64,000 nucleotides of DNA, taken from contig MFWK01000022.1 of NCBI GenBank assembly GCA_001786365.1, forward strand, positions 15,087 through 79,086, written 5' to 3'. The position numbers and the translations under genes are program-made. Below the pieces are notes generated by a model that worked only from the letters and a program-made list of their open reading frames with translations, made no database searches and was not told the origin of the DNA. The DNA is from Candidatus Nomurabacteria bacterium RIFOXYD2_FULL_35_12 (GTDB lineage Bacteria; Patescibacteriota; Minisyncoccia; Phycocordibacterales; UBA9973). Each line of letters opens with the position of its first letter. Position 1 is the stretch's first letter. This document shows positions 36,187 through 54,916 of this stretch, piece by piece.

Positions 36187-37323
36187 TTAAAACAATTTAA
36201 CTATATCGTGATATGTGACAGCGAGCATCAAAATAATTAAAATACCAAAACCAATCATATTCGCAGTATTGGCAAATTTTGGATTTATGCGTGAACCTTT
36301 TATTTTTTCAATAAGTAAAAAGAAAAGTCGTCCACCGTCTAATGCTGGAAATGGCAATAAATTTATGATTGCGAGGTTCACAGAAATAAGCGCAGTAAAA
36401 GATAAAAGATAAACAAAACCGAATTGATAGGCATCACCCACGATGCCCACCATACCGACAGGTCCAGTAACTGATGAGAAGCTTCCTTTACCCTGTATAC
36501 CCTCTGCAATAAGCGTATAAAGCCCTAAAACAGTACCTTTAGTGATAAACCAAGTTAATGACATTCCCTCTTTTAAGGCTGAAAATAGGGGTAATTTGAC
36601 AGTTCCGATCATGTCCATAGATATGCCAATTTCTGGGATATTATTTGTTTTATTTATTACTGGAGTAACGACAGCTAAATTTATATTTTTGTCTTGTCCG
36701 CGTATGTATCCAACGGTTATTTCCCCGCCTGCAACGCTTTGCGTAGCATTGCGGGCAGGTTTTTTACTATGAGATAATATAAAAGATTTCAAAGTGTCAG
36801 GATTTATATCTGAAACAGAATCTTTACCACTTGCGAGTGAAATAATTTTATCACCAGACTTAAGTCCTGCTATTTGTGCTGGAGATTTCTCTAACACAGA
36901 AACAACTGTTAAATTTATATTACTCAATTTATAACCGGCAGACTCTCCACTCACAGAAGTTGGCAATCCAGACATAAAACCAATTGAAAATAAAAACCAT
37001 GCTAATAAAAGATTCGCAAAAACCCCGGCAAATAAAACTATGGCTTGTTGCCATTTTGGTTTATTAACAAAACTCCTACTCGCATCAGGTCCAAAAGTAT
37101 TTTCATCATCAGGATTCTCACCAAAAATTTTAACAAAACCACCGATAGGTAAAAGATTTAAACTATATTCAGTCTCTCCGTATTTCTTACCATAAATCTT
37201 TGGTGGAAAACCAAAACCAAATTCATCAACCCGAATACCAAACTTTTTTGCAGTAAAAAAATGCCCAAACTCATGGACCAGTACGAGGACGAGAAGTATT
37301 ATTATGAAAATTAATATATTCAA
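36187..37323 (-). CDS. rseP: RIP metalloprotease RseP (site-2 protease) with PDZ domain
   Basis: 378 aa. HEFGHFFTAKKFG (HExxH) and C-terminal LDGG. Contains the in-frame family C element (KPARNATQSVAGGE). Confidence 0.8.
   Translation of the reverse strand: MNILIFIIILLVLVLVHEFGHFFTAKKFGIRVDEFGFGFPPKIYGKKYGETEYSLNLLPIGGFVKIFGENPDDENTFGPDASRSFVNKPKWQQAIVLFAGVFANLLLAWFLFSIGFMSGLPTSVSGESAGYKLSNINLTVVSVLEKSPAQIAGLKSGDKIISLASGKDSVSDINPDTLKSFILSHSKKPARNATQSVAGGEITVGYIRGQDKNINLAVVTPVINKTNNIPEIGISMDMIGTVKLPLFSALKEGMSLTWFITKGTVLGLYTLIAEGIQGKGSFSSVTGPVGMVGIVGDAYQFGFVYLLSFTALISVNLAIINLLPFPALDGGRLFFLLIEKIKGSRINPKFANTANMIGFGILIILMLAVTYHDIVKLF
36723..36759. repeat. Family C GC-rich quasi-palindromic element, copy C1 (in-frame inside rseP)
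   Basis: CCCCGCCTGCAACGCTTTGCGTAGCATTGCGGGCAGG is near-identical to 54214..54250. It sits in a coding region at ~70% GC against ~30% surroundings. Confidence 0.7.
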
Positions 37324-37350
37324 TTCGTAATTCTTAATTCGTAATTAACT

Positions 37351-37902
37351 TTACCCCATTACTTCTTTCTGTTTTTTCTCAAAACTTGCTTCTAGGTTTC
37401 TATTTGCCTCATCAATGATTTTTTGTAGTTCGTCTTTTGCTCGGAATTTTTCATCTTCGGTCAATTTTCCTGCTTTTTCTTTCTCTTCCACATCTCTCCA
37501 AATACGTTCTCGTTCTCGACGAACTGTAATTCTTTGTTCCTCTAATTTTTCTTTTAAGACTTTTACGAGGTTTTGCCTCGTTTCTGTAGTTAACTGAGGA
37601 AAAATAACTCTGATACCTAAGTCATCAGTAGCCACAGAGAGACCCAAGTTTGCAGCCACTATCGCCTTTTCAATATCTTTTACCTGACTTTTGTCCCAAG
37701 GCGTGATACGCAGAGTCTTTGAATCTTCTATGTTAATATTTGCAACATTTTTAAGCGGAACTCGTGAGCCATATGACTCTACTGATACTCCGTCTAGAAC
37801 CATAGGCGACGCACGGCCTATATTTAACTGACCGTATTCTTTAGTCAAAAATTTCCCTACTTTTTTTAACTCTGTTTTAAATTGTGAAAAGTTGTATTGC
37901 AT
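37351..37902 (-). CDS. frr: Ribosome recycling factor
   Basis: 183 aa. ...LNIGRASPMVLDGV...; typical Frr length and charge pattern. Confidence 0.9.
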   Translation of the reverse strand: MQYNFSQFKTELKKVGKFLTKEYGQLNIGRASPMVLDGVSVESYGSRVPLKNVANINIEDSKTLRITPWDKSQVKDIEKAIVAANLGLSVATDDLGIRVIFPQLTTETRQNLVKVLKEKLEEQRITVRRERERIWRDVEEKEKAGKLTEDEKFRAKDELQKIIDEANRNLEASFEKKQKEVMG

Positions 37903-38020
37903 CCCGTTAGAGATAGAGAATCTTTAGATTCTCGTAATTTTATTTAATAATTCGACAAAACATACTATCATTATTATTTACATACCCGTTTGATTTTTTA
38001 ACAATATGATCTCTAACGGG
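37903..38020. repeat. Family A MITE-like element, copy A2 (TIRs CCCGTTAGAGAT / ATCTCTAACGGG)
   Basis: Perfect 12-bp terminal inverted repeats about 94 nt apart. The left end directly abuts the frr start codon (37902). Confidence 0.75.
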
Positions 38021-38053
38021 ATTGCATATTTCCATTGTAGCACTATTTTTCAT

Positions 38054-39736
38054 TTAGTAAACCTCTTGCTGATAGCATTTCTCACAAAAAATTATCTCTG
38101 ACCGGTCTGGAGAATATGGTGTCTCAAATTTATTTTTACATCCACCCTTCATACATTTCCTATGCCAAAGTTTATTTGGTCCCCTATTTTTAAATCGTCT
38201 TGTATGTCTACACTCAGGGCAATTTCGCGGAATCGGTATATTCATTCTTTTATAAAAAATAAGTTCGTCTGTAATTATCCGATAATTTTTTTCACATTCT
38301 ATGCATACAAAAACTTCTTTATTCACGTCAAAATCTTTTGGTAATTCCAAAATAGAATCTGGAAAATTTTTCCAATCTATGGTTTCTTTACCAAAAGTGC
38401 CACGTGATGTGTCTTCCCATTTAAATCCTTGTTTTAGAGCTTCTTCTTTATTTAATGGAAACTCATCCATTACCGAAGATTCATTGTATCCAAGCGGAGC
38501 AAATTCTTTAGGGAAAAATTCCCCATAAATTCCTTCCTTTTTCATTTTCTCAATAATTTCAACGCGCAATTTCTCATATTCTTCTTTTGTGTATTGCTTA
38601 TTTAAAATGCAATAAGAGCCTTGAATCAAACCTGCACACCCAAAACAATTATTAGAATTAGGACAATTTAAACAATATTCCATAAAATTAGATTCCCAAC
38701 AATAATAACTGCAAATCACATTAGCGCATTGCATTCCAATGTTTAAAGAGTTGTAAATTAGTTCAGCTGTACGTCCGGCAGTATTACAATCCATACAATT
38801 TTTTGCTTCACGCCAAACATGAATAGAATAAGCATTATCTTCCGCATCATAAGAATGAAAACAATGCTTATTATTTCTAACATTCTTCATATAATTACCC
38901 GTAGAATTGACAGCATTTGTAATTTCCGCAAATTTTCTGGGCTTGTCTTTAATAAAATCTGCGAATTCTTTTTTAAAACTCTCAACACCAGAATAAGTGT
39001 CTAGCTTAAAAGATTTTAATTTTTTCTCGTATTCTTCTTTTGTGTATGGTTTATTAAAAATATGATATTTTTGTTCCCTTAAATTTATACATCCAAGACA
39101 GCTTGTACATCCCCTACAATCAAGCAGAAAAAAACTATCTAGACAGTTGTAACAACCTTTTGACCAACGCAAAGAATGACAATCATAACAATCGTCGACT
39201 TCATAAGAAAGTTCAACTTGATTCGTAAAAGAACAATCTGTTAAATCTTTTGAAAGCTGTATCCAATAGCAGTTCGTGCAATTTTCATTGTTAGAAGATT
39301 CCATAATCATGTAACAATTTTTTGTATCAGCAGTATGGTTAAGATATTCAGAATTAACACTGTTCATATGGACGAGAGCAGGTTTTGGAACTTTCTGCCA
39401 CAATTCATTGAACTGCTCAAAAAAAGATTTTTTAGGATTATATTCCAACGCATAATCTTTACCCTGCAAATCATCACTACGCCAACATTTGTGACACCAT
39501 ACGGGATAAGTCTTGTTGGCGCTAAACATAGAGATGGTGTTTTTTTTACAATTATCGCAGACACGTTTATATAGAAACCTTTCATTCCTAAAAATTAGCC
39601 GAAGCTGTGAACGGCACTCTGGACAAAGCTTTGGTGGAAGTACTCCCATCTTTTCATAAAATCCAAAGTCATTCGGCTCTATAGTAAAGTATTTTTTGCA
39701 GTTCTGACATATTTTATTTTCTACTATATACGCCAT
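38054..39736 (-). CDS. Cys-rich multi-zinc-ribbon protein, paralog 3
   Basis: 560 aa. N-terminal CQNCKKYFTIEPNDFGFYEKMGVLPPKLCPECR; internal repeats ending YCILNKQYTKEEYEKL; C-terminal CPECRH...CMKGGCKNKFETPYSPDRSEIIFCEKCYQQEVY. Confidence 0.6.
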   Translation of the reverse strand: MAYIVENKICQNCKKYFTIEPNDFGFYEKMGVLPPKLCPECRSQLRLIFRNERFLYKRVCDNCKKNTISMFSANKTYPVWCHKCWRSDDLQGKDYALEYNPKKSFFEQFNELWQKVPKPALVHMNSVNSEYLNHTADTKNCYMIMESSNNENCTNCYWIQLSKDLTDCSFTNQVELSYEVDDCYDCHSLRWSKGCYNCLDSFFLLDCRGCTSCLGCINLREQKYHIFNKPYTKEEYEKKLKSFKLDTYSGVESFKKEFADFIKDKPRKFAEITNAVNSTGNYMKNVRNNKHCFHSYDAEDNAYSIHVWREAKNCMDCNTAGRTAELIYNSLNIGMQCANVICSYYCWESNFMEYCLNCPNSNNCFGCAGLIQGSYCILNKQYTKEEYEKLRVEIIEKMKKEGIYGEFFPKEFAPLGYNESSVMDEFPLNKEEALKQGFKWEDTSRGTFGKETIDWKNFPDSILELPKDFDVNKEVFVCIECEKNYRIITDELIFYKRMNIPIPRNCPECRHTRRFKNRGPNKLWHRKCMKGGCKNKFETPYSPDRSEIIFCEKCYQQEVY

Positions 39737-39751
39737 GGCTGATATATAATT

Positions 39752-40474
39752 TTATAATTTTTCTGGAATAATCAAAGCTACTGATTCCATCAAAGTTTTA
39801 GCTGAACTTCCCGGCATACGCAAAAACTCGCGAACTTTGAAAATATGCTCAAAAATTCTAGTGTCAAGGGGCATCCTTGACATCTTGCTATGTAAAACGG
39901 ATTCTAGTGTGTTTAAGAGCTTTAGGGCTTTTGAACGATTAGATTCTATACTTATTTCTTCCTCACTTTCCTCTTCTTTCTTTGGTAATAATTCTTTTAT
40001 AAAATCAATCCTTCTTTGCAAAGGCATATTTATAAATTTCTCCCCGACGTTTTCAGTCGGGGCCCCGACCTCTTCGAGCGTCGGGGCTGCCTTTATTAAA
40101 TAAAATCTAGAAACTAAAGTTTTTAAAAGAGTATTAATATCTGGCACCACAAGAAAAAAATGCGTATTTTCTATCGGCTCTTCAAACATTTTCAATAAAA
40201 CATTTTGCGCATCTAAAGAAAAACTATTTACACTAATCACAAATACTTTTTTAAAAGAAGAAAAAGCTTTGTTGGTAGACATTGAGCGTAAATCAAAAGC
40301 CTCATCAATTTTAAAATTATCTATCGAAATATGGCAAAAATCAGGATTGCCAGAAGTTTTTATATCTAAACTTTCACAAAATTCTAAAATCTCAGGCACA
40401 ACTTTTTCCCTATCTCCTTCTATGAGGTATGCATGATGCAAATTATCTTTATTTAAATGCCTAGCTAAGTTCAT
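39752..40474 (-). CDS. holB: DNA polymerase III delta-prime subunit-like clamp-loader protein
   Basis: 240 aa. HAYLIEGD...LLKMFEEP...VSRF pattern of HolB. Carries the in-frame family B element (APTLEEVGAPTENVG). Confidence 0.65.
   Translation of the reverse strand: MNLARHLNKDNLHHAYLIEGDREKVVPEILEFCESLDIKTSGNPDFCHISIDNFKIDEAFDLRSMSTNKAFSSFKKVFVISVNSFSLDAQNVLLKMFEEPIENTHFFLVVPDINTLLKTLVSRFYLIKAAPTLEEVGAPTENVGEKFINMPLQRRIDFIKELLPKKEEESEEEISIESNRSKALKLLNTLESVLHSKMSRMPLDTRIFEHIFKVREFLRMPGSSAKTLMESVALIIPEKL
40032..40076. repeat. Family B GC-rich double-hairpin element, copy B1 (in-frame inside holB)
   Basis: CCCCGACGTTTTCAGTCGGGGCCCCGACCTCTTCGAGCGTCGGGG: two tandem CCCGAC/GTCGGG hairpins, highly GC-rich. 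Confidence 0.75.
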
Positions 40475-40529
40475 AAAGTTATAAAGTTCTTAAGGTTGTA
40501 AAGTTTGAAAAATTAAATAGTTCTTAAGA

Positions 40530-40649
40530 AAAGCCTTGCGCAGGAGCTTAGAAAATAAATGAGGTAATCCGAATATTATTTTCTTGAGCGACGAGCAGTT
40601 CGCTGGCGAAGCTTCGCCAGATAGATTGCTTTTCGAGAGAAGCTATTTA
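40530..40649. repeat. Family F ~120-bp repeat, copy F1 (candidate structured RNA or MITE)
   Basis: AAAGCCTTGCGCAGGAGCTTAGAAAATAAA...TATTATTTTCTTGAGCGACGAGCAGTTCGCTGGCGAAGCTTCGCCAGATAGATTGCTTTT. About 90% identical to 48327..48445 and to the reverse complement of 61409..61511. Confidence 0.8.
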
Positions 40650-40662
40650 GTTTTTCAAAGAA

Positions 40663-41676
40663 CTACTTTTTGCTTAAAACTGTTTTTTTATACACGTCCA
40701 AATGATCGAGAGCTATACCTGTGCCTTTTACTACACAGAAAAGAGGATCCTCAGCCAAAGCAGCCTTTACTCCAGTCTTTCTATAAACCAAATCAGTGAA
40801 ATTTCGAAGTTGAGAAGAACCTCCAGTCATGATTATTCCTTGATCAATAATATCTGAGGCTAATTCTGGCGGAGTTTCTTGCAATACATCTTTGATAGCT
40901 TGAATTATTTGTTTTAGTTCTCCATCTATCGCTTTGACTATTTCATTTGTTCCCACTCGCGCTGACCTAGGCAAGCCTTGAATAAAATCCCTACCTTTTA
41001 TCGTCACACTGAGCTCTTCTTCTAAAAGCACCGCTGCACCGATTTTAATTTTTACTTCTTCGGCTGTCCTATCACCGATAGCTAAGTTAAAAGTTTTTTT
41101 AATATAATCAGCTATAGCGCCATCTATTTTATTTCCAGCGCACTTTACTGATTTAGAGGCCACAATTCCGCCAAGCGAAATGACTGCTACGTCTGTCGTG
41201 CCCCCACCTATGTCCACAACCATATGCCCTTTCGATTCATAAATTGGAATTCCCGCGCCGATGGCTGCTAAGATAGGCTCTTTGACTACATAAGCATTCT
41301 TTGCACCAGCGCGAATTGCAGCTTCTATGACTGCTCGCCTCTCTGTACTCGTGACTCCTGCAGGAACCGAAACCATCACATCCGGTTTGAAAAAATTAAA
41401 TTTCCCCATCGCTTTATTTATAAAATAACGAAGCATTGCCTCAGTCACACGATAATCTGCTATGACTCCATCTTTCATCGGGCAATAAGTAATGATAGAT
41501 TCTGGGGTCTTTCCAATCATATCTTTGGCTTCAAAACCAATAGCTAGAATTTTATTGTCTTGTTCAGAAACCGCTACAACAGAAGGCTCGTTTAGAATAA
41601 TTCCTTTTCCAGGTAAAAAGACCAAAGTATTGGCTGTTCCTAAATCTATGCCTAGTTTTTTCGTAAAAATACCCAT
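40663..41676 (-). CDS. mreB: Rod shape-determining protein MreB
   Basis: 337 aa. GIDLGTANTLV, DIGGGTTD actin-fold motifs. Confidence 0.9.
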   Translation of the reverse strand: MGIFTKKLGIDLGTANTLVFLPGKGIILNEPSVVAVSEQDNKILAIGFEAKDMIGKTPESIITYCPMKDGVIADYRVTEAMLRYFINKAMGKFNFFKPDVMVSVPAGVTSTERRAVIEAAIRAGAKNAYVVKEPILAAIGAGIPIYESKGHMVVDIGGGTTDVAVISLGGIVASKSVKCAGNKIDGAIADYIKKTFNLAIGDRTAEEVKIKIGAAVLLEEELSVTIKGRDFIQGLPRSARVGTNEIVKAIDGELKQIIQAIKDVLQETPPELASDIIDQGIIMTGGSSQLRNFTDLVYRKTGVKAALAEDPLFCVVKGTGIALDHLDVYKKTVLSKK

Positions 41677-41794
41677 CCCGTTTAGAAGCAGGTCGCGGTC
41701 AACAAACCTCGACTTTGCTTAGTTATGTTATTAAATTTTTTATCTTTTATAAACATGATTCTTATATAAAACTGCGACCGTGGCTTCTAACGGG
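41677..41794. repeat. Family A MITE-like element, copy A3
   Basis: CCCGTTTAGAAGCAGGTCGCGGTC...GCGACCGTGGCTTCTAACGGG. The left end directly abuts the mreB start codon (41676). Confidence 0.75.
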
Positions 41795-41836
41795 ACCCAT
41801 GAGCCTATGTTATCATATTTATGTTAAAATCAAAGA

Positions 41837-42172
41837 ATGGATGACGAAGAAAAAAATGATATAGAAAACAATCTCAAAAACCCATTTATAGGATATTTGG
41901 CAAATTTAAAGAAACATAAACAAGCCATAAACCCTGTTCATGAAATTGTAAATTGCTATTATAAAATGAATGGCTGGGAAAAAATGCCAAAAGATTTTTA
42001 TACCGGTAGATATGCTTATAATAAGCTCGCGAAAGAAGCAAAAATGCTCTACCAAGCTTGTAATGAAGTTTTAGATGATGCTATTTGGGCTTTAGACAAA
42101 ATGAAATACCTCGCCGAGAAAGGCAAATTCGACTGGTCTATAATCACCTGTTTGAAACACAAATTAAAATAG
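41837..42172 (+). CDS. Hypothetical protein
   Basis: 111 aa ORF, no recognisable motif. Confidence 0.3.
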   Translation: MDDEEKNDIENNLKNPFIGYLANLKKHKQAINPVHEIVNCYYKMNGWEKMPKDFYTGRYAYNKLAKEAKMLYQACNEVLDDAIWALDKMKYLAEKGKFDWSIITCLKHKLK

Positions 42173-42173
42173 T

Positions 42174-42878
42174 TTAAGAAACAATTACTGTAAATTCCCC
42201 TCTTTGCTTGTCAGGATTTTTATTGAAATATTCTAAAATTTCGTGTGGTAAACCAGTTTTAAATTCTTCATAGATTTTTGTCAATTCGCGAGCTACGCAG
42301 ACTTTTTTATGAGGGCAAAATTCAACAAGCGATGCTAATGTTTTTAAAATTCTGTGAGGAGATTCATAAAATACCATCGTGCGTTCAGAAATTGCTATTT
42401 CTTTAAATAAAGTTTCTCTGCCTTTCTTGTGCGGAAGAAAACCAAGAAAAGTAAATTCATGAATAGGCATTCCTGATGCAGAAAGCGCGGCAATAACGGC
42501 TGAAGCTCCAGGGATTGGAATCACTTGAACTTCTTCATTGGTAAATTTTTCTTTTATTCTAGAAACGAGCATTGAGCCCGGGTCTGATATTGTGGGAGTG
42601 CCAGCATCAGAAACCAATGCAACATTTTTCCCGTCGTATAATAATTTAAAAATTTTATCTAATTTCTCATTCTTTCCGAGTTTATAATCAGCTCCAGCTA
42701 CATCGTCAGACGGATAGCTCATCGTTTCTTTATTTATTTCATATTTATTTAAAATTTTCTTTGTCTCTCGCGTATCTTCACACAATATCAAATCCACGCT
42801 TTTAAGCGTCTCGATAGCTCGGAGTGTGATGTCTCCCATATTTCCTATCGGCGTCGCCACAACATAAAATTTAGACAT
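42174..42878 (-). CDS. rsmI: 16S rRNA (cytidine1402-2'-O)-methyltransferase
   Basis: 234 aa. FYVVATPIGNMGDITLRAIETLKSVDLILCEDTR tetrapyrrole-methylase fold of RsmI. Confidence 0.85.
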   Translation of the reverse strand: MSKFYVVATPIGNMGDITLRAIETLKSVDLILCEDTRETKKILNKYEINKETMSYPSDDVAGADYKLGKNEKLDKIFKLLYDGKNVALVSDAGTPTISDPGSMLVSRIKEKFTNEEVQVIPIPGASAVIAALSASGMPIHEFTFLGFLPHKKGRETLFKEIAISERTMVFYESPHRILKTLASLVEFCPHKKVCVARELTKIYEEFKTGLPHEILEYFNKNPDKQRGEFTVIVS

Positions 42879-42883
42879 AAATT

Positions 42884-44856: not shown

Positions 44857-45861
44857 TTAACTTACACTTGCCATACCCGCACTGATTTCTGATATTTCCC
44901 TAGTAATGTTTCCCTGCCTTGCTTTATTGAACACCAGGGTCAGATCATCTATCATTTCTCCTGAAGCATCAGAAGCATTTTTCATTGCGACCATTCGACT
45001 CGACTGTTCAGAAGCATTTGATTCGAGCAACATTTGATAAATCTGCATCCTTGTAATCTTCTCCGCGAGTGACCCTATCAATGTGTTCATGTCTCCTTCT
45101 ATTAAATAACTTATACTTTTTTCTCTCCCGACGCTTTCGGTCGGGACTCCGACCTCTCCAGGCGTCGGAGCTAAATTGTTTATTAAATCTTGTAATTCTG
45201 TTTTAGATACAGGCAATATTTGTTTTATATTTGGCTTCTGATTTAAAGCGGAAATAAAATCAGTATAAGCTACTAAAACTTTATCGTAATGAAGAAGGAT
45301 ATATTCATCTATGGTAAATTTTGAAATTGGAACAACTTCTGTCAAAGAAATATTATTGCTCAAATCTGCAAAAGTGGCAACGACATTTACTCCGAGTCTG
45401 CGCATCGCCACATCTCCTTTTTTACCGACAGAAACAATATCTACCCCGTTAGAAGCAGGTCGCCCCGAGGTGACCGTAGCACTCTCGTGCTCGAGAGAGC
45501 GGCTTCTAACGGGGTCTAAATTTATGTTTTGACTTTTTAAAAATGAAATCGTTTTTTTAATAACTTGCGCATTATAAGATCCACACAAACCCCTGTTTGA
45601 TGTAATGAGCACAAGCAACACATTTGCTTTTACCCCACCTTTCTTTTCTCTTTCAGTAAAAAGTGGATGGGAATTCTCCTCTATATTTTTAGCTATTGAT
45701 GTAAGAACTTCCCACGAATATCCAGCATAAAGACGTGACGCCAAAGTAGAAGCCACCGCACGCTTCATCTTACTAGCAGCCACGAGCTCCATCGCTTTCG
45801 TGATTTTCTTTGTGTTCTTTACAGACTTTATGCGTCGTTTTATTTCTTTAGTTCCCGCCAT
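44857..45861 (-). CDS. atpG: F1 ATP synthase gamma subunit (with two in-frame repeat-element insertions)
   Basis: Conserved N-terminus MAGTKEIKRRIKSVKNTKKITKAMELVAASKMKRA at 45861 (the ORF track's upstream extension to 45954 is unlikely). Inserts encode LDPVRSRSLEHESATVTSGRPASNG (family A) and APTPGEVGVPTESVG (family B). Confidence 0.85.
   Translation of the reverse strand: MAGTKEIKRRIKSVKNTKKITKAMELVAASKMKRAVASTLASRLYAGYSWEVLTSIAKNIEENSHPLFTEREKKGGVKANVLLVLITSNRGLCGSYNAQVIKKTISFLKSQNINLDPVRSRSLEHESATVTSGRPASNGVDIVSVGKKGDVAMRRLGVNVVATFADLSNNISLTEVVPISKFTIDEYILLHYDKVLVAYTDFISALNQKPNIKQILPVSKTELQDLINNLAPTPGEVGVPTESVGREKSISYLIEGDMNTLIGSLAEKITRMQIYQMLLESNASEQSSRMVAMKNASDASGEMIDDLTLVFNKARQGNITREISEISAGMASVS
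45127..45168. repeat. Family B element, copy B2 (in-frame inside atpG)
   Basis: CCCGACGCTTTCGGTCGGGACTCCGACCTCTCCAGGCGTCGG. Same architecture and reading frame (A-P-T...VG..TE.VG) as B1 and B4. Confidence 0.75.
45444..45514. repeat. Family A element, copy A4 (in-frame inside atpG)
   Basis: CCCCGTTAGAAGCAGGTCGCCCCGAGGTGACCGTAGCACTCTCGTGCTCGAGAGAGCGGCTTCTAACGGGG. Termini match A1/A3, and the interior holds nested palindromes. Confidence 0.7.
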
Positions 45862-48445: not shown

Positions 48446-48457
48446 TAAATTTTCAAA

Positions 48458-48735
<278 letters not shown>

Positions 48736-48771
48736 TTAATAATAATAATTTCGACTAATAATTTATAATAA

Positions 48772-49662
48772 TCACACTGATACTACCACATTTTCTTCAT
48801 GCTTTTCATGCTCATCATGTGCATCATGATCCGTGGCTGAAATTGTAAAATAAACAACCAAAAGCATTGAAAATATGAGAGCTTGAATGACTCCAACCAA
48901 TATTTCTAAAAATACGAATGGAATAGGTAAAATATAAGCAAAAATGGCTGCCATTGACGCCAAAAGGACTTCTCCGGCAAAAACGTTACCAAAAAGTCGG
49001 AACGACAATGATGCTATTTTTGCAAACTCACCGACAAGCTCGAGTAGACCGACAAAGAACGTGATTGGGGCGACAATAATTATCGTTTTGTCTTTTTTTA
49101 TCTTCGTAAATATCTGCCCCAGCGCTTTTAGATTAACATACTTGTTAAAAATTTTCCATATACCGATTGAAAAAATACCGAACAAATTTGCTCCAATAAC
49201 AGCCATGATGGCGAGAGCAATAGTGGTGTTCACATCGGCTGTGCCACCACGAAGAAATGGGATAAAAGCTAAACCGTGTTCACCTTTTTCTAAAAGTCCT
49301 AAACCACCGATCGGTAAAAGCCCTAGCCAATTGTTTATAAGAATAAAAAAGAAAACGGAAATAGCTATTGGAAAAACGATAACTGAGAGTGACCTATTGT
49401 TTGTCACTTGATCACATAGATCAAGCGCGCCTTCTACAACAATTTCAAAAACATTTTGTAAAACATTTGGAACTTCTTTTAATTTTTTTCGTAAAATTAC
49501 AGCAAGAATTATTATTATCAAAACTGCTAACCAGCTCGTGACGAGAGCATTTGTAAAAGTAAAATTATTTGTATGAAAAACAGGTTCTGCAAAAAGAGTA
49601 GTCTCGTAACTAATTTCCCCTCCTGTTTCTGTATTTACGTTTATTTCTTTTGCTTCTATCAT
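48772..49662 (-). CDS. atpB: Fo ATP synthase subunit a
   Basis: 296 aa polytopic membrane protein. Conserved Arg context LSFRLFGNVFAGE. Confidence 0.85.
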   Translation of the reverse strand: MIEAKEINVNTETGGEISYETTLFAEPVFHTNNFTFTNALVTSWLAVLIIIILAVILRKKLKEVPNVLQNVFEIVVEGALDLCDQVTNNRSLSVIVFPIAISVFFFILINNWLGLLPIGGLGLLEKGEHGLAFIPFLRGGTADVNTTIALAIMAVIGANLFGIFSIGIWKIFNKYVNLKALGQIFTKIKKDKTIIIVAPITFFVGLLELVGEFAKIASLSFRLFGNVFAGEVLLASMAAIFAYILPIPFVFLEILVGVIQALIFSMLLVVYFTISATDHDAHDEHEKHEENVVVSV

Positions 49663-49664
49663 TT

Positions 49665-49931
49665 TTATTTCTTGTCTTTTTTATCTTCTATTTCTAAAGT
49701 TTTCATATATTTAAATACTACTCGCACTATGCCATATGAAGAGATTATGAATCCTAAACCAGTGCATCCTAAAAATATCCAAGGGTCTGTGCCGTAATGA
49801 CTGTCTAATGCTTTACCTATTATGAGCGCCAAAACTATAGGCACTACAACCCAAGTCGAAACCCTGCTGAATACATCAAAAGCAGGCTTCCAATCTATTT
49901 TTTTATTACTTTCATTAGTCACAAAAAACAA
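49665..49931 (-). CDS. Small membrane protein at the head of the atp operon (AtpI/AtpZ-like)
   Basis: 88 aa, two TM helices, immediately upstream of atpB. Confidence 0.4.
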   Translation of the reverse strand: MFFVTNESNKKIDWKPAFDVFSRVSTWVVVPIVLALIIGKALDSHYGTDPWIFLGCTGLGFIISSYGIVRVVFKYMKTLEIEDKKDKK

Positions 49932-49984
49932 AGCCCTTACGGCTTTACCCTAGTATAAGATAAAAATATATTGGATGCAAATGT

Positions 49985-50137
49985 AAAGTTATTTACCCTC
50001 TTCTGGTGGAAAATCTTCTTGGTATCTTTTCAATGCTTCTTTTAATGCTGCTTCTGTATCTCCAAATAAATCTTCTTCCTTAGGAATTTCATCCTGAGGC
50101 TTTTTTTCTCCCATATTTTGTGGTGCACCTTCGTTCA
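49985..50137 (-). CDS. Small acidic hypothetical protein (50 aa)
   Basis: MNEGAPQNMGEKKPQDEIPKEEDLFGDTEAALKEALKRYQEDFPPEEGK. Not in the ORF track. A hairpin AAAGCCCTTACGGCTTT follows. Coding status is uncertain. Confidence 0.25.
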
Positions 50138-50145
50138 TAAAATTT

Positions 50146-50655
50146 CTATTTTTTATCTACAAAACGTCCGCCATTAATTTTTTTGCACTTATCCCAATCA
50201 TAAATTCTTCCATTTAAAGCAATAAAAATACCTTTATCTAAAACATTAAGAGCGCCAATAGCTACACCGATATTAAACTCAGCATCCGATTCTCGAAACC
50301 TCCACGGCTGAGAAGCACCAGTCAAAATTATTACTTTATCTTTTATATCACTCAAAACTTTCGCTGTTTCAACCATTGTATCCGTTCCGTGAGTAATCAA
50401 AATTTTATTTTCTTTAGTTTTCAAACATGCTTTTTTAATTGTTTGTCTATCTCCTTCATTCATATAAAGACTGCTTTTCATTTTAAGACTGTCTTTAGCA
50501 AAAAGAGGTTCTATTTTATAGCCAAAATTTAGCTTGACTTTATCACGATATATTTCATTGATAGCAGGCTCTCCAAAAGAAAAGTTATAGATTCCTTTAG
50601 TTTCTAGATAAATTTTATCTATCGTTCCGCCACAGGTAAAAACTTTTATTTTCAT
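50146..50655 (-). CDS. L-asparaginase N-terminal-domain-only protein (type I asparaginase/GatD-like)
   Basis: 169 aa. Asparaginase motifs FTCGGTI and HGTDTM. No C-terminal domain. Confidence 0.55.
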   Translation of the reverse strand: MKIKVFTCGGTIDKIYLETKGIYNFSFGEPAINEIYRDKVKLNFGYKIEPLFAKDSLKMKSSLYMNEGDRQTIKKACLKTKENKILITHGTDTMVETAKVLSDIKDKVIILTGASQPWRFRESDAEFNIGVAIGALNVLDKGIFIALNGRIYDWDKCKKINGGRFVDKK

Positions 50656-50694
50656 AATATCTATTTATACCAGACATAGCTCATAAAATCAATG

Positions 50695-50766
50695 TGAGTG
50701 TGGAAGGAATCGGACCTTCGACCTCTGTCTTATCAGGACAGCGTTCTACCACTGAACTACACACTC
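50695..50766 (-). tRNA. tRNA-Ile (anticodon GAU)
   Basis: Reverse complement GAGTGTGTAGTTCAGTGGTAGAACGCTGTCCTGATAAGACAGAGGTCGAAGGTCCGATTCCTTCCACACTCA. Anticodon loop CTGATAA. Confidence 0.75.
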
Positions 50767-50890
50767 AAAAACTGTTTAAAAAACTATAACAGAAAATATT
50801 GAGTAAAGCAAAATTCCCCTCACCCCTTGCTTTCCCCTCTCCATTTTAAAAATAAATGGAGAGGGGTTGGGGAGAGGAAAGAGATTAAAC

Positions 50891-50915
50891 AAAAAACCAC
50901 CCAAGGTGGTTTTTT
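50891..50915. terminator. Rho-independent terminator AAAAAACCACCCAAGGTGGTTTTTT (bidirectional)
   Basis: Perfect GC stem with A- and T-tracts, 3' of the RRM-protein gene. Confidence 0.7.
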
Positions 50916-50940
50916 GTTTAATCTGAAATCTAAATTTAAA

Positions 50941-51261
50941 TTAGTATTCTCGGCGTCCGCCTCCTCCCCCATAACCTCCTCGGTCATTGCCTCCACTTCG
51001 TGGTGGGCGAGCTTCCATTGGGCGAGCTTCGTTGACAGTAAGTTTGCGTCCTTCGAATTCTTGATCGTTGAACATCGAGATAGCTTTTGCAGCTTCATCT
51101 TGAGATGACATTTCTACGAATCCAAAACCTTTTGAACGACCAGACATCTTGTCCATGATAATAACAGCGGAAACAACGTTTCCAGCCTGTGCGAAGAGCT
51201 CTTTTAGGGCACCTTCGACTGTGCTGTAAGGGAGTCCCCCTACATATAGCTTTGTAGCCAT
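50941..51261 (-). CDS. Glycine-rich RNA-binding protein (single RRM)
   Basis: 106 aa. RNP2 KLYVGGL, RNP1 KGFGFVEM, C-terminal GGYGGGGGRR tail. Confidence 0.8.
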   Translation of the reverse strand: MATKLYVGGLPYSTVEGALKELFAQAGNVVSAVIIMDKMSGRSKGFGFVEMSSQDEAAKAISMFNDQEFEGRKLTVNEARPMEARPPRSGGNDRGGYGGGGGRREY

Positions 51262-51393
51262 TTTCTTTACTTCTCCCGTTTTTAAAAATCGGGCAAAAAC
51301 TACTTAATAAAACGTAGAAACTCTTTTCGCTAAGTGAGAAACTACGATGAAAAGCATAACATATTTAAAATGAAAAGTAAATAAAGAGAATCT

Positions 51394-52359
51394 TTACTCC
51401 TCCGTTTCATTTCCCACTGCACCTGTTTCAATATCAGCAATTATTTCCCCTATTCCGCCTTCCATTATTTTCGGCAAATTGTGCCAAGATTTCTTTATAC
51501 GATGATCCGTCACGCGGTCTTGAGGGAAATTATAAGTGCGGATTTTTTCTGATCTATCTGCTGTACCTATTTGCTCTTTGCGTTCTCCGGCATATTTTTT
51601 TGCTTCTTTTTCTTCTTCTAATTGCTGAAGTTTAGCAGTCAAAATAGCCATCGCTTTTTCTCTGTTTGCGAGCTGACTGCGTTCATTTGTAGAACGGACA
51701 TCAAGTCCGGTAGGCTTGTGAATGATACGTACAGCCGTTTCAACCTTGTTCACATTTTGTCCTCCTTTTCCACCAGAACGAGAATATTCCAACTCAAACT
51801 CCGAAGGATCAATTTTTACTGTTACTTTTTTCCTTATCGGCAATACTGCCACAGATGCAGTGGAAGTATGAATCCTGCCGTTTTTTTCTGTCGCAGGCAT
51901 TCTCTGCACCCTGTGCACACCCGTCTCATATCGCATTTTACTGTAAACATCTTTACCTTTTATTTCAAAACTCGCTTCTTTATAACCATTCAAATCACTC
52001 TTTGATTCATAATTTACTTTCCAGCTCCAGCCTTGTGCTTCTGAAAACTTCTCATACATATGGGCGAGTTCCCAAGCAAAAAGAGATGCTTCGTCTCCAC
52101 CGGCACCAGCTCGCACTTCTAAAACTATTTCATTCGTCATCTCTTCCTCTTCTTTGTCTTTGTCAAAAATTTCTTGTACTTGTTTTTCTATTCTTTCTCT
52201 TTCTTCTTGAATAAATTTTAATTCCTTTACTGCCATTTCATGCAAACTATCATCGCTCGCGAGCATTTCTCGCACTTCCGCTTCTTCTCGGACAAGTTTT
52301 TCCAACATGTCAGCTAAATAGCTTGTATTATGATTTCTTTTAAGTTCTTCTAAATCCAT
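51394..52359 (-). CDS. prfA: Peptide chain release factor 1
   Basis: 321 aa. GGQ motif SGGKGGQNVNKVETAV; RF1-type tripeptide region RVQRMPATEKNGRIHTS (PxT). Confidence 0.85.
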   Translation of the reverse strand: MDLEELKRNHNTSYLADMLEKLVREEAEVREMLASDDSLHEMAVKELKFIQEERERIEKQVQEIFDKDKEEEEMTNEIVLEVRAGAGGDEASLFAWELAHMYEKFSEAQGWSWKVNYESKSDLNGYKEASFEIKGKDVYSKMRYETGVHRVQRMPATEKNGRIHTSTASVAVLPIRKKVTVKIDPSEFELEYSRSGGKGGQNVNKVETAVRIIHKPTGLDVRSTNERSQLANREKAMAILTAKLQQLEEEKEAKKYAGERKEQIGTADRSEKIRTYNFPQDRVTDHRIKKSWHNLPKIMEGGIGEIIADIETGAVGNETEE

Positions 52360-52438
52360 ATAATTATATTATACAAAAATAAATCGTTGAGTCGTAACTC
52401 TTTGCAGGGGTTTCGAGGCTGACGAGCCGAGAATTTCA

Positions 52439-52463
52439 GGATTTTTTAAGCTTCAAAAAATCC
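52439..52463. terminator. Hairpin GGATTTTTTAAGCTTCAAAAAATCC (9-bp stem) between rpmE and prfA
   Basis: Perfect inverted repeat GGATTTTTT/AAAAAATCC. Confidence 0.5.
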
Positions 52464-52494
52464 GTACCGAAAAAGAGTTATGACGAGAAAGATT

Positions 52495-52719
52495 TTATTT
52501 CTTTGCTTTAGCAGTTACGGTTGCAGCACGTCGCTTGTTGAATCTCTCTACGCGTCCAGCAGTGTCCATAATTTTTTCATTACCAGTATAAAAAGGATGG
52601 CAATTACTGCAGATTTCCATAGCAATTTCAGGCATTGTGGAACCAACTTCAAAAACCGCCCCGCAAGCGCAAGTGGCTTTTGTCTTTATATCGTATTTTG
52701 GATGTATCTCTTTTTTCAT
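52495..52719 (-). CDS. rpmE: 50S ribosomal protein L31
   Basis: 74 aa. MKKEIHPKY...CxCG...CSNCHPFYTG signature. Confidence 0.85.
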   Translation of the reverse strand: MKKEIHPKYDIKTKATCACGAVFEVGSTMPEIAMEICSNCHPFYTGNEKIMDTAGRVERFNKRRAATVTAKAKK

Positions 52720-52748
52720 TGCTCAAAAAGATTATCACGAATTCTATT

Positions 52749-54158
52749 TTAAAGCAAATCTATATCAGCTTGAATTTTTAATTTCAATTTTTGAACGCTT
52801 CGGCTATAAGAACAAGAAGTTCCCGTGCCTTTTTTTACTGTTTCATATTTTTTTGTTTTTGTATTATATATTTGGTTAAGACCTGTTCCATAGTAACTGC
52901 AAGCTGCTTTGTTTTGCTTACTAGTGCTCGTGCCCACTGCTCCAAGATCTGATAAAAACATTCCTGAAGCCATAAATGCATCTCTCGGAGCCCACGGATT
53001 GGCAACAGAACCCAAAACATCTTTCAGACGACTAGCAAAAATCTTCCAAGTAGAAGGAATAAATTGTGCCGGCCCCATAGCCCCGCCATAGCCTTTTATA
53101 TTTGCCACCGGACAAGAAACAGCAGTTTTATAAGCATTAAATCCCAGCTCCACAGTCATACTCAAAAATACCGGAACATCACGCGTAGGATTCATCACAT
53201 TTGCAAAAACTTTTCCAGTATTTTTACCGACGCCAGCCCCTGTATCAGGATTCGTCAGATAACACTGCCCGACATTTGCGCCAAGGCTGGACTCTTGAGT
53301 TAAAATCGCCAACAAAAATGCCGGATCAACTCCTAATTTACTTTTTACTTCATTTGCATATTGCAACGCTGTTCCGAAATCAATTTTTTGCGAAATACCG
53401 GCAAGACTAAAAAGAGCACTGCGAATTTTATTTGCTTGAACTTTTTTTGCATCTGCTAATTTTTGATATTCTGCCTCTTTATTTTTTGAAATAGATAAAA
53501 GTTGTTTTTTCTCTGCTTCGGATTTCGCCACAGTTTTCTGAGCACTTTCTAACTCAGCTTTTGCATCAAGTTCGGCACTTTGTTTATTTTCTAAATCTTT
53601 TTTTGCAACTTCAGTTTGTGTTTTGGCTCCATTGACTATATCAATCGAAGATTTTACAGCTTGCTTTATCGAAGTGTAAGATTCTAAATCACTATAAAAA
53701 TCTGAAACGCTTTTATTTGAAAGAATTAAACTGACTAAATTCCCATCATCAAATTCATTTGTATTTCTGAGCAATTGAGCTAAAGATTCATGTTCACGCT
53801 CTATCTTGTCGGAAAGTGATTTGATGGTATTAACTTTTTCAGTAATATTTACTTTTAATTGAGCTATTGTGAGAGCTCTGGCTTTTATTTTTGCTTTTAA
53901 TGTATTTATCTTGCTAGTTAGATAATCCACATCCCCTTTCAAAGTTCCAGAAGTTTTTTGTTGCTCTTTTTGTTGTTCCAATAAAGCTGAAAGCTGAGCT
54001 TCTATCTGAGAAAGTTCATTTTGGCAATAATCTTTATCGGACTGAGCGGAAGATACTGTAAGCGTCAAACAATCAAAAACAGCATATGTTTTATGCCCTG
54101 AAAGACTAAAAAATAAAGATATTATAAAAATAAAAGCTATGACTGCGTTTCTCGTCAT
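52749..54158 (-). CDS. Secreted coiled-coil protein with C-terminal lytic-transglycosylase-like (SLT) domain
   Basis: 469 aa. Signal peptide MTRNAVIAFIFIISLFFSLSGHKTYA, ~250 aa coiled coil, then AFLLAILTQESSLGANVGQ (the E-S catalytic context of SLT domains). Confidence 0.45.
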   Translation of the reverse strand: MTRNAVIAFIFIISLFFSLSGHKTYAVFDCLTLTVSSAQSDKDYCQNELSQIEAQLSALLEQQKEQQKTSGTLKGDVDYLTSKINTLKAKIKARALTIAQLKVNITEKVNTIKSLSDKIEREHESLAQLLRNTNEFDDGNLVSLILSNKSVSDFYSDLESYTSIKQAVKSSIDIVNGAKTQTEVAKKDLENKQSAELDAKAELESAQKTVAKSEAEKKQLLSISKNKEAEYQKLADAKKVQANKIRSALFSLAGISQKIDFGTALQYANEVKSKLGVDPAFLLAILTQESSLGANVGQCYLTNPDTGAGVGKNTGKVFANVMNPTRDVPVFLSMTVELGFNAYKTAVSCPVANIKGYGGAMGPAQFIPSTWKIFASRLKDVLGSVANPWAPRDAFMASGMFLSDLGAVGTSTSKQNKAACSYYGTGLNQIYNTKTKKYETVKKGTGTSCSYSRSVQKLKLKIQADIDLL

Positions 54159-54190
54159 AGCTTTTATTATACCATAATTTTATAAAATTT

Positions 54191-54916
54191 TTACTTCTTT
54201 TCTGCCTTCTTTTCCCCGCCTGCAACGCTATGCGCAGCATTGCGGGCAGGTTCTTTAGCTGGTGTGGTGGTGGCTGGTTCTGCTCCAGGCACTCCTTCTT
54301 CTTCTTTCTTGCCTTTCTTCTCTACTTCAATAGCGGACAAATCAGGAGCAACTACGACTTCTTCTTTTTCTTCAACTTGAGCAACGACAGAAGCTACGAC
54401 ATCGCCTGTATTTGTGATGACGACGACTCCGGATGGCAATTTTATATCAGAAACGAAAACGTTATTATCCAAGGTTTCAAGTTTTGAAATATCTACAACT
54501 AAATTGTGCGGTAAATCTGCAGGCAAAGCTTCGATTTCTATTTCATGAAGAACTTTCACAAGATTTCCAATACCACTCTTTACCGCATTTGAAATACCTT
54601 CGAATACAAGAGGAACCTTGACTCGAATTTTCTTTTTCATATCAATAACCAAAAAATCCACATGGATTGGCTCATCGGTGACTGGGTCTACTTGCACTTC
54701 ATGAATAAGAGCATTCACATCGCCAGCAGGAGTAGAAATCTTGATAGCAGAAGACTCTCCGGCATCTCGCCAGATTTTCTTGAATTCAACGATAGAAAGT
54801 GTTACAGATGTGGTCTTTTCCCCTGCTCCGTAAAAAACAGCTGGGATTTTCCCAGACTTTCTCAAAACACCCAATTTTGTATCTAAATCTCTTTTATCAG
54901 CTTTAATTACAAACAT
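54191..54916 (-). CDS. rplY: 50S ribosomal protein L25 / general stress protein Ctc (with C-terminal repeat-containing tail)
   Basis: Conserved start MFVIKADKRDLDTKLGVLRKSGKIPAVFYG at 54916 (the ORF track's 54976 start is probably too far upstream). The C-terminal tail ...EPARNAAHSVAGGEKKAEKK is encoded by the family C element. Confidence 0.75.
   Translation of the reverse strand: MFVIKADKRDLDTKLGVLRKSGKIPAVFYGAGEKTTSVTLSIVEFKKIWRDAGESSAIKISTPAGDVNALIHEVQVDPVTDEPIHVDFLVIDMKKKIRVKVPLVFEGISNAVKSGIGNLVKVLHEIEIEALPADLPHNLVVDISKLETLDNNVFVSDIKLPSGVVVITNTGDVVASVVAQVEEKEEVVVAPDLSAIEVEKKGKKEEEGVPGAEPATTTPAKEPARNAAHSVAGGEKKAEKK
54214..54250. repeat. Family C element, copy C2 (in-frame at 3' end of rplY)
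   Basis: CCCCGCCTGCAACGCTATGCGCAGCATTGCGGGCAGG: 35 of 37 positions identical to C1, same frame (PARNA.HSVAGGE). Confidence 0.7.

Follow-up and report, generated by a model that had tools for sequence, protein, structure and literature searches.

A 36-nt hairpin element inserted in frame in rseP and rplY of a Nomurabacteria genome recurs in many bacterial lineages and beside a GIY-YIG gene

In a 64,000-nt stretch of contig MFWK01000022.1 of Candidatus Nomurabacteria bacterium RIFOXYD2_FULL_35_12 (hereafter the window), two nearly identical GC-rich hairpins, here called family C, lie in frame inside rseP, which encodes a site-2 protease, and rplY, which encodes ribosomal protein L25/TL5. Both are insertions of a 36-nt unit that relatives lack, and copies of this unit are found across the candidate phyla radiation (CPR) and in metagenome-assembled genomes (MAGs) labelled as other phyla, in some cases directly upstream of a small GIY-YIG nuclease gene and a tRNA gene. 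The rseP and rplY sequences are probably solo copies of a short mobile hairpin resembling repetitive extragenic palindromes (REPs) and Rickettsia palindromic elements (RPEs); within genes, copies of this family would be filtered by selection, and its home is the GIY-YIG/tRNA module.

Two copies of family C in rseP and rplY

The window has a G+C content of about 35%, and its RseP is identical to an NCBI protein of Parcubacteria group bacterium GW2011_GWC1_35_8, a Nomurabacteria-like CPR organism. An earlier note on this DNA had placed two 37-mers at 36723..36759 and 54214..54250 and had described them as 35/37 identical and in the same orientation and frame. Both were found at these positions, differing at 2 of 37 bases, on the minus (coding) strand and in one frame, with the translations KPARNATQSVAGGE and EPARNAAHSVAGGE. 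No matching 37-mer pair occurred in 100 dinucleotide-preserving shuffles of the window. The inserted unit proper is 36 nt long (36724..36759 and 54215..54250), base 37 belonging to the flank, and consists of an unpaired 5′ CCTG tag and a 32-nt GC-rich imperfect hairpin. The two copies and their host genes are as follows.

36187..37323, minus strand: rseP (site-2 protease), host gene of copy 1; Pfam Peptidase_M50/RseP; 378 aa, versus 366 aa in relatives
36724..36759, minus strand: family C hairpin copy 1, 36 nt, CCTGCCCGCAATGCTACGCAAAGCGTTGCAGGCGGG; translated PARNATQSVAGG, RseP residues 189-200
54191..54916, minus strand: rplY (ribosomal protein L25/TL5), host gene of copy 2; Pfam L25/TL5; the 241-aa database form starts at M21
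54215..54250, minus strand: family C hairpin copy 2, 36 nt, CCTGCCCGCAATGCTGCGCATAGCGTTGCAGGCGGG; translated PARNAAHSVAGG, L25 C-terminal tail

The mechanically called L25 open reading frame (ORF) spans 54191..54976 and includes 20 codons (54917..54976) upstream of M21, which is probably the true start. The rplY copy sits within the final 60 nt of the gene. Database cluster P0121 uses the long L25 form and has GGG replaced by TGG (G to W) inside the element. Folding of both strands predicted a three-tier imperfect hairpin (CCCGC/GCGGG, TGC/GCA, and NCGC/GCGN′) preceded by the unpaired CCTG, with energies of -11.5 to -12.9 kcal/mol and z-scores of -2.2 to -4.0 relative to shuffled sequences.

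Insertion into conserved genes

Alignment with 17 RseP orthologues (75-88% identical to that of the window) revealed a gap of precisely the 12 residues in all 17. Among the 120 best RseP matches, the motif was present only in three 378-aa clusters that are 100% identical, and the other 117 were mostly 366 aa long. The empty site was identified in the DNA of the relatives L122 and L123, which read AAA|GAA (...AAAAAA|GAAAT...) at the point where another 36 bases, CCTGCCCGC...GCAGGCGGG, stand in the window, without any target duplication. In rplY, the insertion point is AAAGAA|GAAAAG, and a relative whose L25 is 93% identical (L124) reads AAAGAG|GAAAAG without the 36 nt. No microhomology was visible at the junctions when the filled and empty sites of rseP and rplY were compared. 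Copies located in 5′ fragments of tRNA genes leave contiguous tRNA sequence when the element is removed, and the glyceraldehyde-3-phosphate dehydrogenase (GAPDH) of another MAG carries an insert of 12-13 aa that is found in no solved GAPDH structure.

The comparison of orthologues that the earlier note had proposed thus identifies the 12 residues as an insertion, missing from the 17 RseP orthologues and the closest L25. A recent local duplication of one gene fragment, which that note had named as the observation that would overturn its view, was not found, since the two copies have unrelated flanks and at least 118 other loci contain the 37-mer. The insert-bearing RseP was recorded in identical form on 29 and 17 contigs from several sources. 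In an AlphaFold (AF2) model of RseP that is poor overall (mean predicted local distance difference test score [pLDDT], 58), the insert is predicted as coil of very low confidence (pLDDT <50), flanked by a helix and a strand that belong to the better-modelled PDZ-like region (pLDDT 73-83).

Breadth and structure of the family

The distribution of family C was surveyed by an exact-pattern scan of one genome per species with CCTGCCCGCAAYGC-N13-GCNGGCGGGG, in which only exact matches were counted. The surroundings of each match (±4 kb or ±1.5 kb) were inspected, with ORFs called mechanically as the longest open frame. At least 118 family C loci with unrelated flanks were obtained. Among the matches listed, the CPR lineages include Saccharibacteria, Paceibacteria, Nomura-, Moran-, Magasanik-, Berkel-, and Doudnabacteria, Microgenomates, and Levyibacteria, and the MAGs with other labels include Lentisphaerae, Verrucomicrobiota (one Akkermansia), Desulfobacterota, Gammaproteobacteria, Bdellovibrionales, and Aminicenantes, although the taxonomic labels and binning of MAGs may be wrong. 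Some of the matches with non-CPR labels lie on contigs of 56-62% G+C, and none of the matches listed bears a Rickettsia label. The earlier note had limited its proposal to a mechanism or filter in this genome; that scope was too narrow for an element found with little change in many CPR lineages and in MAGs that carry the labels of other phyla.

Family C copies share an outer stem, CCTGCCCGC...GC[A/G]GGCGGG, which encloses a variable hairpin. Three types defined by the inner stem dominate, ACGC/GCGT (the type of the window), TCGC/GCGA, and CTCGC/GCGAG. In 52 distinct variants the stem covaries: pair 16:26 is T-A in 25, A-T in 12, and G-C in 2, and pair 12:30 is T-A in 34 and C-G in 10. Conservation across phyla extends to synonymous positions, and stem positions change together as base pairs. 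A hand count over the variants revealed no clear strand asymmetry of G·T versus A·C mismatches, by which an RNA-level hairpin might be told from a DNA-level one.

A search of the window against Rfam at the gathering threshold returned four tRNAs only and no family for the element. BLAST of the consensus against phage and plasmid collections gave no match, and a pattern scan of IMG/VR gave two contigs only, which indicates that phages and plasmids are not the main carriers of the element. Literature searches found no description of this hairpin family, the search with the peptide string being swamped by surnames. A sequence-specific target site was considered and rejected: coding sites are Lys/Glu-rich (AAA|GAA), yet noncoding sites and sites in tRNA fragments share no motif.

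Nesting of hairpins within the loops of further copies, in some cases with opposite orientations, was observed at seven loci (L130, L131, L142, L153, L162, L096, and L041), the first five of which are upstream of GIY-YIG genes. This nesting suggests that hairpin tips are preferred insertion sites. Several copies, many of them of the CTCGCTTGCGAG subtype, stand within short tandem repeats with units of about 7 nt (such as CAGCATC, TCATTAG/TCATTGG, and GAAAATT; L113, L091, L120, L019, L080, and L082), sometimes inside very long ORFs read on the antisense strand.

Reading frame and host proteins

After duplicate loci were removed, 75 of the 118 copies among the matches listed were located inside long ORFs, and 56 of these 75 independent copies use the PARNA..AGG sense frame (binomial p = 3e-24 against an expectation of 1/5). 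The bias is stronger at loci below 46% G+C, where 50 of 60 copies (83%) among the matches listed use this frame. Each copy in the window is free of stop codons in five of the six frames, which rules out a stop-codon filter as the cause of the frame rule; the test of stop codons that the earlier note had suggested therefore fails to explain it. PARNA..AGG is the sole open frame that is both hydrophilic and free of cysteine, and it begins with Pro and ends with Gly-Gly. The peptides of the other open frames (LPAMLRIAMQA, PACIAMRSIAGR, and PPASLCEALRA) are hydrophobic and/or contain cysteine. Noncoding copies in the GIY-YIG module described below occur in both orientations (30 forward and 26 reverse) and are 35-44 nt long, including lengths that are not multiples of three.

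The simplest reading is that insertion is blind to frame and that selection keeps, in loops and tails, those copies whose length is a multiple of three and whose frame is benign. The earlier note had offered a filter or an insertion bias for the in-frame rule, and a selection filter agrees best with the frame bias, the open frames, and the unbiased noncoding copies. The strength of the frame bias also implies that the insert is translated and not removed from the RNA.

The codons flanking intragenic copies are enriched for Lys, Glu, and Asp, and many intragenic copies are near protein ends. The host genes are essential or core housekeeping genes. The host proteins include GAPDH, MurD/E, ribonucleotide reductase (RNR), AtpG, LigA, tRNA-guanine transglycosylase (TGT), and ArgRS, all assigned by Pfam, and RpoB, SecA, IleRS, LeuRS, FtsK, UvrC, and GyrA, assigned by inspection only.

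The C-terminal tail of L25

The tail of L25 is a recurrent or old site. Of 120 L25 homologues, about 16 have a segment at this position of the tail, either a full form in other lineages (PARNASHSDAGG and PARNAAHSAAGG) or a short form (PARPTGAGG, PARAGG, and PARPSGG). At the DNA level, these variants have the same outer stem, and the interior is different or missing, as in the following loci.

L001: L25 tail variant, CCTGCCCGCAATGCTTCGCATAGCGATGCGGGCGGGG
L003: L25 tail variant, CCTGCCCGCCCTACGGGAGCAGGCGGGG
L208: L25 tail variant, CCTGCCCGC|GCAGGCGGA

The nearest L25 relatives (90-93% identical) have no insert, and the L25 copy of the window is more like the rseP copy of the window than like L25 copies elsewhere. 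Both observations point either to a permissive site with repeated gain or loss or to gene conversion of one copy by another. The earlier note would have abandoned its view if the segment proved to be conserved in RseP or L25 of unrelated bacteria. The segment does recur in L25 of other lineages, but these are related CPR bacteria and its occurrence in them is patchy. A second small palindrome, TTGCCTGCGCAGGCAGGA (translated DLPAQAGE), follows KKGKK in the L25 tail of L207 (about 913..935; P0159), and similar peptides occur in P0161, P0164, and P0211. Since this palindrome is at another position, the L25 tail collects several hairpin insertions.

A GIY-YIG gene and tRNA module

All-against-all clustering of the ORFs around 118 hairpin loci, each up to 8 kb (about 900 kb in total), revealed no recurrent transposase-like neighbour, and the only family that repeatedly adjoins the hairpin was GIY-YIG. 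Several family C copies lie within about 20 nt of the start of GIY-YIG genes encoding 78-80 aa at L047 (twice), L058, L006, L107, and L104, and each of these genes has a tRNA gene directly on its 3′ side. The proteins match Pfam GIY-YIG (PF01541) with E values of 3e-15 to 6e-18, no NCBIfam family reaches its cut-off for them, and they consist of the catalytic domain only; one 78-aa example begins MFYTYVLKSLKDGKLYIGFSENLKNRLREHNKG.... Tyr5, Tyr16, Gly18, Arg26, His30, and Glu62 are invariant in seven of the proteins, and we take these to be the active-site positions of I-TevI-type enzymes.

The association was examined independently in 80 metagenome loci picked by protein alone, using four GIY-YIG seed proteins. 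A strict family C hairpin was present within 200 nt of the GIY-YIG gene in 39 of the 80 loci. With a relaxed pattern, a hairpin was found 7-67 nt upstream of the ATG in 56 of 78, compared with 4 matches in 132 kb of the same loci as a control, and several of the remaining loci have variant or nested hairpins by eye. The association is independent of hairpin orientation, these being the 30 forward and 26 reverse copies counted above. A tRNA gene lies within 150 nt of the GIY-YIG gene in 59 of 80 loci, nearly always just downstream and on the same strand, and the tRNAs include those for Gln, Lys, Asn, Ile, Leu, Met, His, Glu, Arg, Thr, and Pro. A copy of the initial ~20 nt of the same tRNA is cleanly split by the hairpin in 25 of 31 loci, the point of the split varying within the acceptor/D-arm region. 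Such tRNA-like 5′ fragments also hold about 6-8 of the 121 copies among the matches listed from the genome scan.

The locus L047 illustrates the arrangement, with the layout GGGCGGTTA[hairpin]GCTCAGTTG-aaaaaat-ATG...TAG-GGGCGGTTAGCTCAGTTGG..., in which the last stretch is tRNA-Val. At 6869..7528 of this locus, the hairpin and the GIY-YIG gene are tandemly duplicated with a period of 297 nt before tRNA-Val(gac), and each ORF ends with a TAG stop that overlaps the tRNA, or fragment of one, at its first G. The cassette of hairpin and GIY-YIG gene is nearly identical over its first ~190 nt in MAGs labelled Saccharibacteria and Nomurabacteria, the proteins being 83% identical. A GIY-YIG catalytic domain protein is listed in a survey of horizontal gene transfer among the genes predicted to have been donated from Patescibacteria to other bacteria (PMC12455944). 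In the literature library searched, no paper combined GIY-YIG with repetitive extragenic palindromes.

A sister family and other hairpins in the window

The earlier note had suspected an intergenic palindrome at 32205..32235 of being related to the two intragenic hairpins. The palindrome, CCCCGAAGCAGAGCCTAGGCTCGCTACGGGGCAGG, is real but lies ten bases to the right, at 32215..32249 (35 nt). The kinship, suspected from its CCCCG...CGGGGCAGG ends, is reasonable, as its CCTGCCC start is shared with two further intragenic hairpins of the window. Three window copies have the form CCTGCCCCGT-hairpin-TTCGGGG and make up a sister family.

32215..32249, minus strand: sister hairpin, 35 nt, CCTGCCCCGTAGCGAGCCTAGGCTCTGCTTCGGGG; intergenic between alr and rpmG, 8 nt past the alr stop codon
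57196..57228, plus strand: sister hairpin, 33 nt, CCTGCCCCGTACCGAGCTTGCTCTGGTTCGGGG; antisense inside gatB (Pfam GatB), translated PEPEQARYGAG
22441..22473, minus strand: sister hairpin, 33 nt, CCTGCCCCGTTGGAAGTTTGTTTTCCTTCGGGG; antisense inside topA (Pfam topoisomerase I), translated PEGKQTSNGAG

The feature common to family C and the sister family is a CCTG tag with a stem beginning CCC. The heptamer CCTGCCC occurs five times in the window, each time at the start of a hairpin (two of family C and three of the sister family), and its count alone is not significant (5 observed versus 2.2 expected). The topA and gatB copies are read in the same antisense frame, and the 11-aa insertion in gatB is missing from a 91%-identical GatB (L124) and from L001. 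In GatB (window 56136..57650), the same loop holds a different insertion (IDGDAS..TSLSAG) in L003 (5637..7124), and the GatB of the window has an additional KKTN.

The intergenic hairpin is kept at the same place in the relative L123. A near-consensus sigma-70-like promoter (TTGCAA-17-TAATAT; 32180..32214) is located at its 3′ foot ahead of rpmG, and the hairpin may double as the alr terminator or a 5′ boundary element. The interval from this hairpin to the tRNA at 31876..31946 holds rpmG and no GIY-YIG gene.

The window contains other GC-rich hairpins or tandem double hairpins (CCCCGAC..GTCGGGG twice and TCCGCC..GGCGGA twice), most of them intragenic.

40040..40093: other-family hairpin, DNA polymerase III delta′-like gene
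45125..45172: other-family hairpin, atpG
30858..30891: other-family hairpin, thiamine pyrophosphate (TPP) enzyme gene
58390..58443: other-family hairpin, intergenic
16404..16441: other-family hairpin, dus
~20641..20666: other-family hairpin, 5′ end of topA

The hairpin region of the DNA polymerase III delta′-like gene varies among relatives and is not a clean insertion. The corresponding gene of L123 (2155..2925) has a 17-aa insertion, LPGVPVGTHTVQNSLET, that is missing from the window and L122 and may be another in-frame element. Hairpins of the TCCGCC..GGCGGA kind adjoin family C copies in other genomes (L064 and L104).

Proposed mechanism and alternative explanations

We propose that the 36-nt unit, which inserts precisely and without duplicating its target, does so without regard to the reading frame, as the noncoding copies in both orientations and of lengths other than 3n suggest. 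Purifying selection would then pass units of 36 nt (33 nt in the sister family) in the one open frame that is hydrophilic and cysteine-free, with its Pro start and Gly-Gly end. The sites that survive would be surface loops, N- and C-terminal tails, and Lys/Glu-rich linkers of conserved housekeeping proteins. The home module comprises a duplicated tRNA 5′ fragment split by the hairpin, a GIY-YIG gene of 78-80 aa, and an intact tRNA gene, and transcription of the GIY-YIG gene would probably start at the tRNA promoter and place it in the leader of the tRNA. The nuclease would nick hairpin or cruciform DNA in trans and let copies spread, and the rseP and rplY copies would stand to the nuclease as REPs stand to RAYT (REP-associated tyrosine transposase). 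We put forward mobilization of the hairpin by the GIY-YIG enzyme as a tentative suggestion.

Several points weigh against this proposal. No GIY-YIG gene is present within the 64-kb window. To our knowledge, GIY-YIG enzymes are nickases and homing endonucleases and not transposases, and we know of no chemistry for pasting a 36-nt hairpin into nonhomologous sites. Exact-pattern copies per genome appear to be few, with 2 per 64 kb here and 1-2 per large contig among the matches listed, unlike burst-type elements. Insertion polymorphism within a population was not seen, all three near-identical RseP clusters carrying the insert. The adjacency to GIY-YIG could have another cause, the hairpin being a stabilizer of the mRNA 5′ end, a breaker of the direct repeat against cassette deletion, or a destroyer of the nuclease site. 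The mechanical ORF calls and the possibly wrong MAG labels also bear on the counts.

The main alternative is that the element has no dedicated enzyme and spreads passively, when replication slips or switches template at hairpins, when foreign DNA is taken up, and by conversion between copies, and that the hairpin serves the GIY-YIG cassette as an mRNA 5′ stem-loop, by breaking a direct repeat of ~25 nt, or by disrupting the nuclease's own target. The equal frequency of both orientations upstream of GIY-YIG fits such a purely structural role, and the hairpin is almost always in the duplicated tRNA fragment and not at a fixed distance or sequence. The widely varying interiors within a conserved outer stem are also in line with it, and the closer likeness of the two window copies to each other than to L25 copies of other lineages could be conversion. 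However, the precise occurrence of the same 36-nt unit at dozens of unrelated coding sites across phyla is hard to obtain without a site-independent cut-and-insert activity, and the junctions have no visible microhomology. We consider passive spread rather unlikely.

The GIY-YIG adjacency might instead be incidental, and the element an ordinary one of the REP/REPIN type (REPIN, REP doublet forming hairpins) moved by a RAYT or by a tyrosine (Y1, HUH) transposase of the IS200/IS605 family encoded elsewhere. Its build is REP-like, with a 4-nt unpaired tag, an imperfect GC-rich hairpin of 20-40 nt, and no target duplication; nesting in other hairpins fits a mechanism acting on single-stranded hairpin DNA; and intragenic REPs are documented (PMC3733652). 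But the tag is CCTG and not GTAG, most copies found are intragenic with few exact-pattern copies per large contig among the matches listed, and GIY-YIG was the only repeat neighbour in the 118 loci (±4 kb), where no recurrent transposase-like gene was found. Near-identical copies cross phyla, in contrast to REP families, which are specific to one species or a limited set of species (Di Nocera et al., PMC3733652). This explanation is very unlikely.

It is highly improbable that PARNAxxSxAGG has a function as a peptide, be it a linker, a site of modification, or a motif for binding, and is selected at the protein level with the DNA palindrome as a by-product. The strong bias for one frame and the recurrence of the motif in the L25 tail of several lineages would accord with a peptide under selection, but about one-third of the copies are noncoding or in other frames or orientations, and synonymous positions are kept across phyla, with stem positions covarying as base pairs. 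The hosts are functionally unrelated, close orthologues work without the segment, and Pfam gives only host-gene domains in the carrier proteins. An assembly or sequencing artefact or a misplaced CRISPR repeat is scarcely conceivable: although a length of 36-37 nt and partial palindromy are CRISPR-like and the best match in a permissive Rfam search is CRISPR-DR20 (14 bits versus a threshold of 42, E = 1.6), the insert-bearing RseP recurs on many contigs, changes between copies are compensatory, the frame is kept in essential genes, and no arrays were found, the only close pair (L047, 297 nt apart) being the tandem duplicate of the GIY-YIG cassette.

Comparison with known elements

Family C lacks the defining tags of both REP superfamilies, and its behaviour is like that of RPEs, but it is far shorter and not bound to one lineage. 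The Rickettsia palindromic elements (RPE-1) were reportedly described by Ogata et al. in 2000. Like them, family C is palindromic selfish DNA in a small AT-rich genome, lies in frame in housekeeping genes, and is translated as an extra surface segment; in-frame insertions missing from orthologues were found in RseP, L25, GatB (sister family), and the GAPDH of another MAG. RPE-1 elements are 100-150 bp long and are not known outside Rickettsia, whereas family C has 36 nt and a CCTG tag, is near-identical across many phyla, and is tied to the GIY-YIG/tRNA module.

GTAG-tagged REPs and REPINs with their RAYTs share with family C an unpaired 4-nt tag, an imperfect GC-rich hairpin of 20-40 nt (here 32 nt with covarying stem pairs), the lack of target duplication, and nonautonomy. 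The dedicated neighbouring gene itself flanked by the repeat, the clustering and nesting, and occasional intragenic copies are further likenesses. In contrast, the unpaired end is CCTG in family C and the sister family, and the neighbour is a GIY-YIG nuclease and not a Y1/HUH transposase, with no RAYT in the 118 loci of up to 8 kb. REPs are numerous and lie predominantly outside genes; the exact-pattern copy number of family C looks low (two family C and three sister copies in the 64 kb, and elsewhere 75 of the 118 in long ORFs among the matches listed), most of its copies found so far are intragenic, and the family crosses phyla.

REPs have been divided into GTAG- and CGTC-tagged superfamilies, of which the CGTC REPs have no dedicated transposase (Di Nocera et al. 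2013, PMC3733652). CGTC REPs occur in several phyla, mainly in Alphaproteobacteria, and some copies lie within genes for replication, repair, or tRNA synthetases; they have a CGTC tag, a stem of 8-9 bp starting with AT, a loop of 4-5 nt, and a CCA tail, and RPE-4 and RPE-6 also carry the CGTC tag (PMC3733652). Family C has none of these tag, stem, loop, and tail features. A possible link of CGTC REPs to GIY-YIG was seen here at one or two loci. At L062, a 99-aa GIY-YIG gene of another clade (reverse strand, 4908..5205) is flanked by an inverted CGTC-type REP-like repeat (CGTCATTGCGAGGAGG...CGAAGCAATCTCGTTG), the inverted CGTCATTGCGAGG...CGAAGCAATCTCG having an end that resembles the family C end GCATTGCGGGCAGG, and at L038 a similar gtcattctgaggagc...cgacgaagaatctc is beside its own GIY-YIG gene. 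These repeats may be a clue to the partner of the CGTC REPs, which were reported without a transposase.

The segB gene of phage T4 is a free-standing GIY-YIG homing endonuclease gene in a tRNA gene cluster (PMC2330249). It resembles the module in that a GIY-YIG gene, lodged beside or between tRNA genes, acts as selfish DNA. Seg proteins have a sequence-specific DNA-binding domain joined to the catalytic one, and their genes spread between genomes that infect the same cell, through repair of double-strand breaks; here a bare catalytic domain of 78 aa is encoded on the chromosome, accompanied by a hairpin and a duplicate piece of tRNA.

Comparable elements have been described from mitochondria, as GC clusters in the mitochondrial DNA of yeast and as repetitive hairpins in other organisms' mitochondria (PMC4478555, PMC2800124). 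They too are short GC-rich palindromes that spread in AT-rich genomes by an unknown mechanism and with nested insertions. The yeast clusters occasionally lie in frame in coding sequence (var1). Unlike family C, these elements are organellar, have unrelated sequences, and have no identified enzyme. Miniature inverted-repeat transposable elements, with terminal inverted repeats derived from insertion sequences, target duplication, and lengths of 70-300 bp, differ from the 36-nt unit, which has no target duplication at three kinds of empty site, and CRISPR repeats, with their regular arrays and unique spacers, differ from the single copies of family C, in which the sole pair is the cassette duplicate.

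The link with GIY-YIG has a substantial chance of making family C a new class of element. It is possible, though we suggest it with reserve, that family C is the non-autonomous half of an undescribed class of bacterial mobile elements, in which a GIY-YIG protein of ~78 aa encoded in the 5′ leader of a tRNA gene mobilizes tagged hairpins in trans, and that these hairpins cross phyla and are tolerated in one benign frame in essential genes. If this is true, GIY-YIG mini-nucleases could be the "missing transposase" of CGTC REPs and RPE-4/6.

Implications

In-frame palindromic inserts have so far been treated mainly as a curiosity of Rickettsia, together with scattered intragenic REPs. Here, one 36-nt unit occurs almost unchanged in dozens of CPR lineages, and also in MAGs with the labels of other phyla, including in RpoB, SecA, and tRNA synthetases. 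As a natural experiment, the family can reveal what inserted peptides are tolerated by essential proteins; it also marks the exchange of DNA by ultra-small epibionts with other bacteria, and it is a warning for the annotation and phylogenomics of CPR proteins. The module also names a small, easily expressed candidate enzyme and a defined substrate, so that the question of what mobilizes REP-like hairpins without a RAYT becomes testable.

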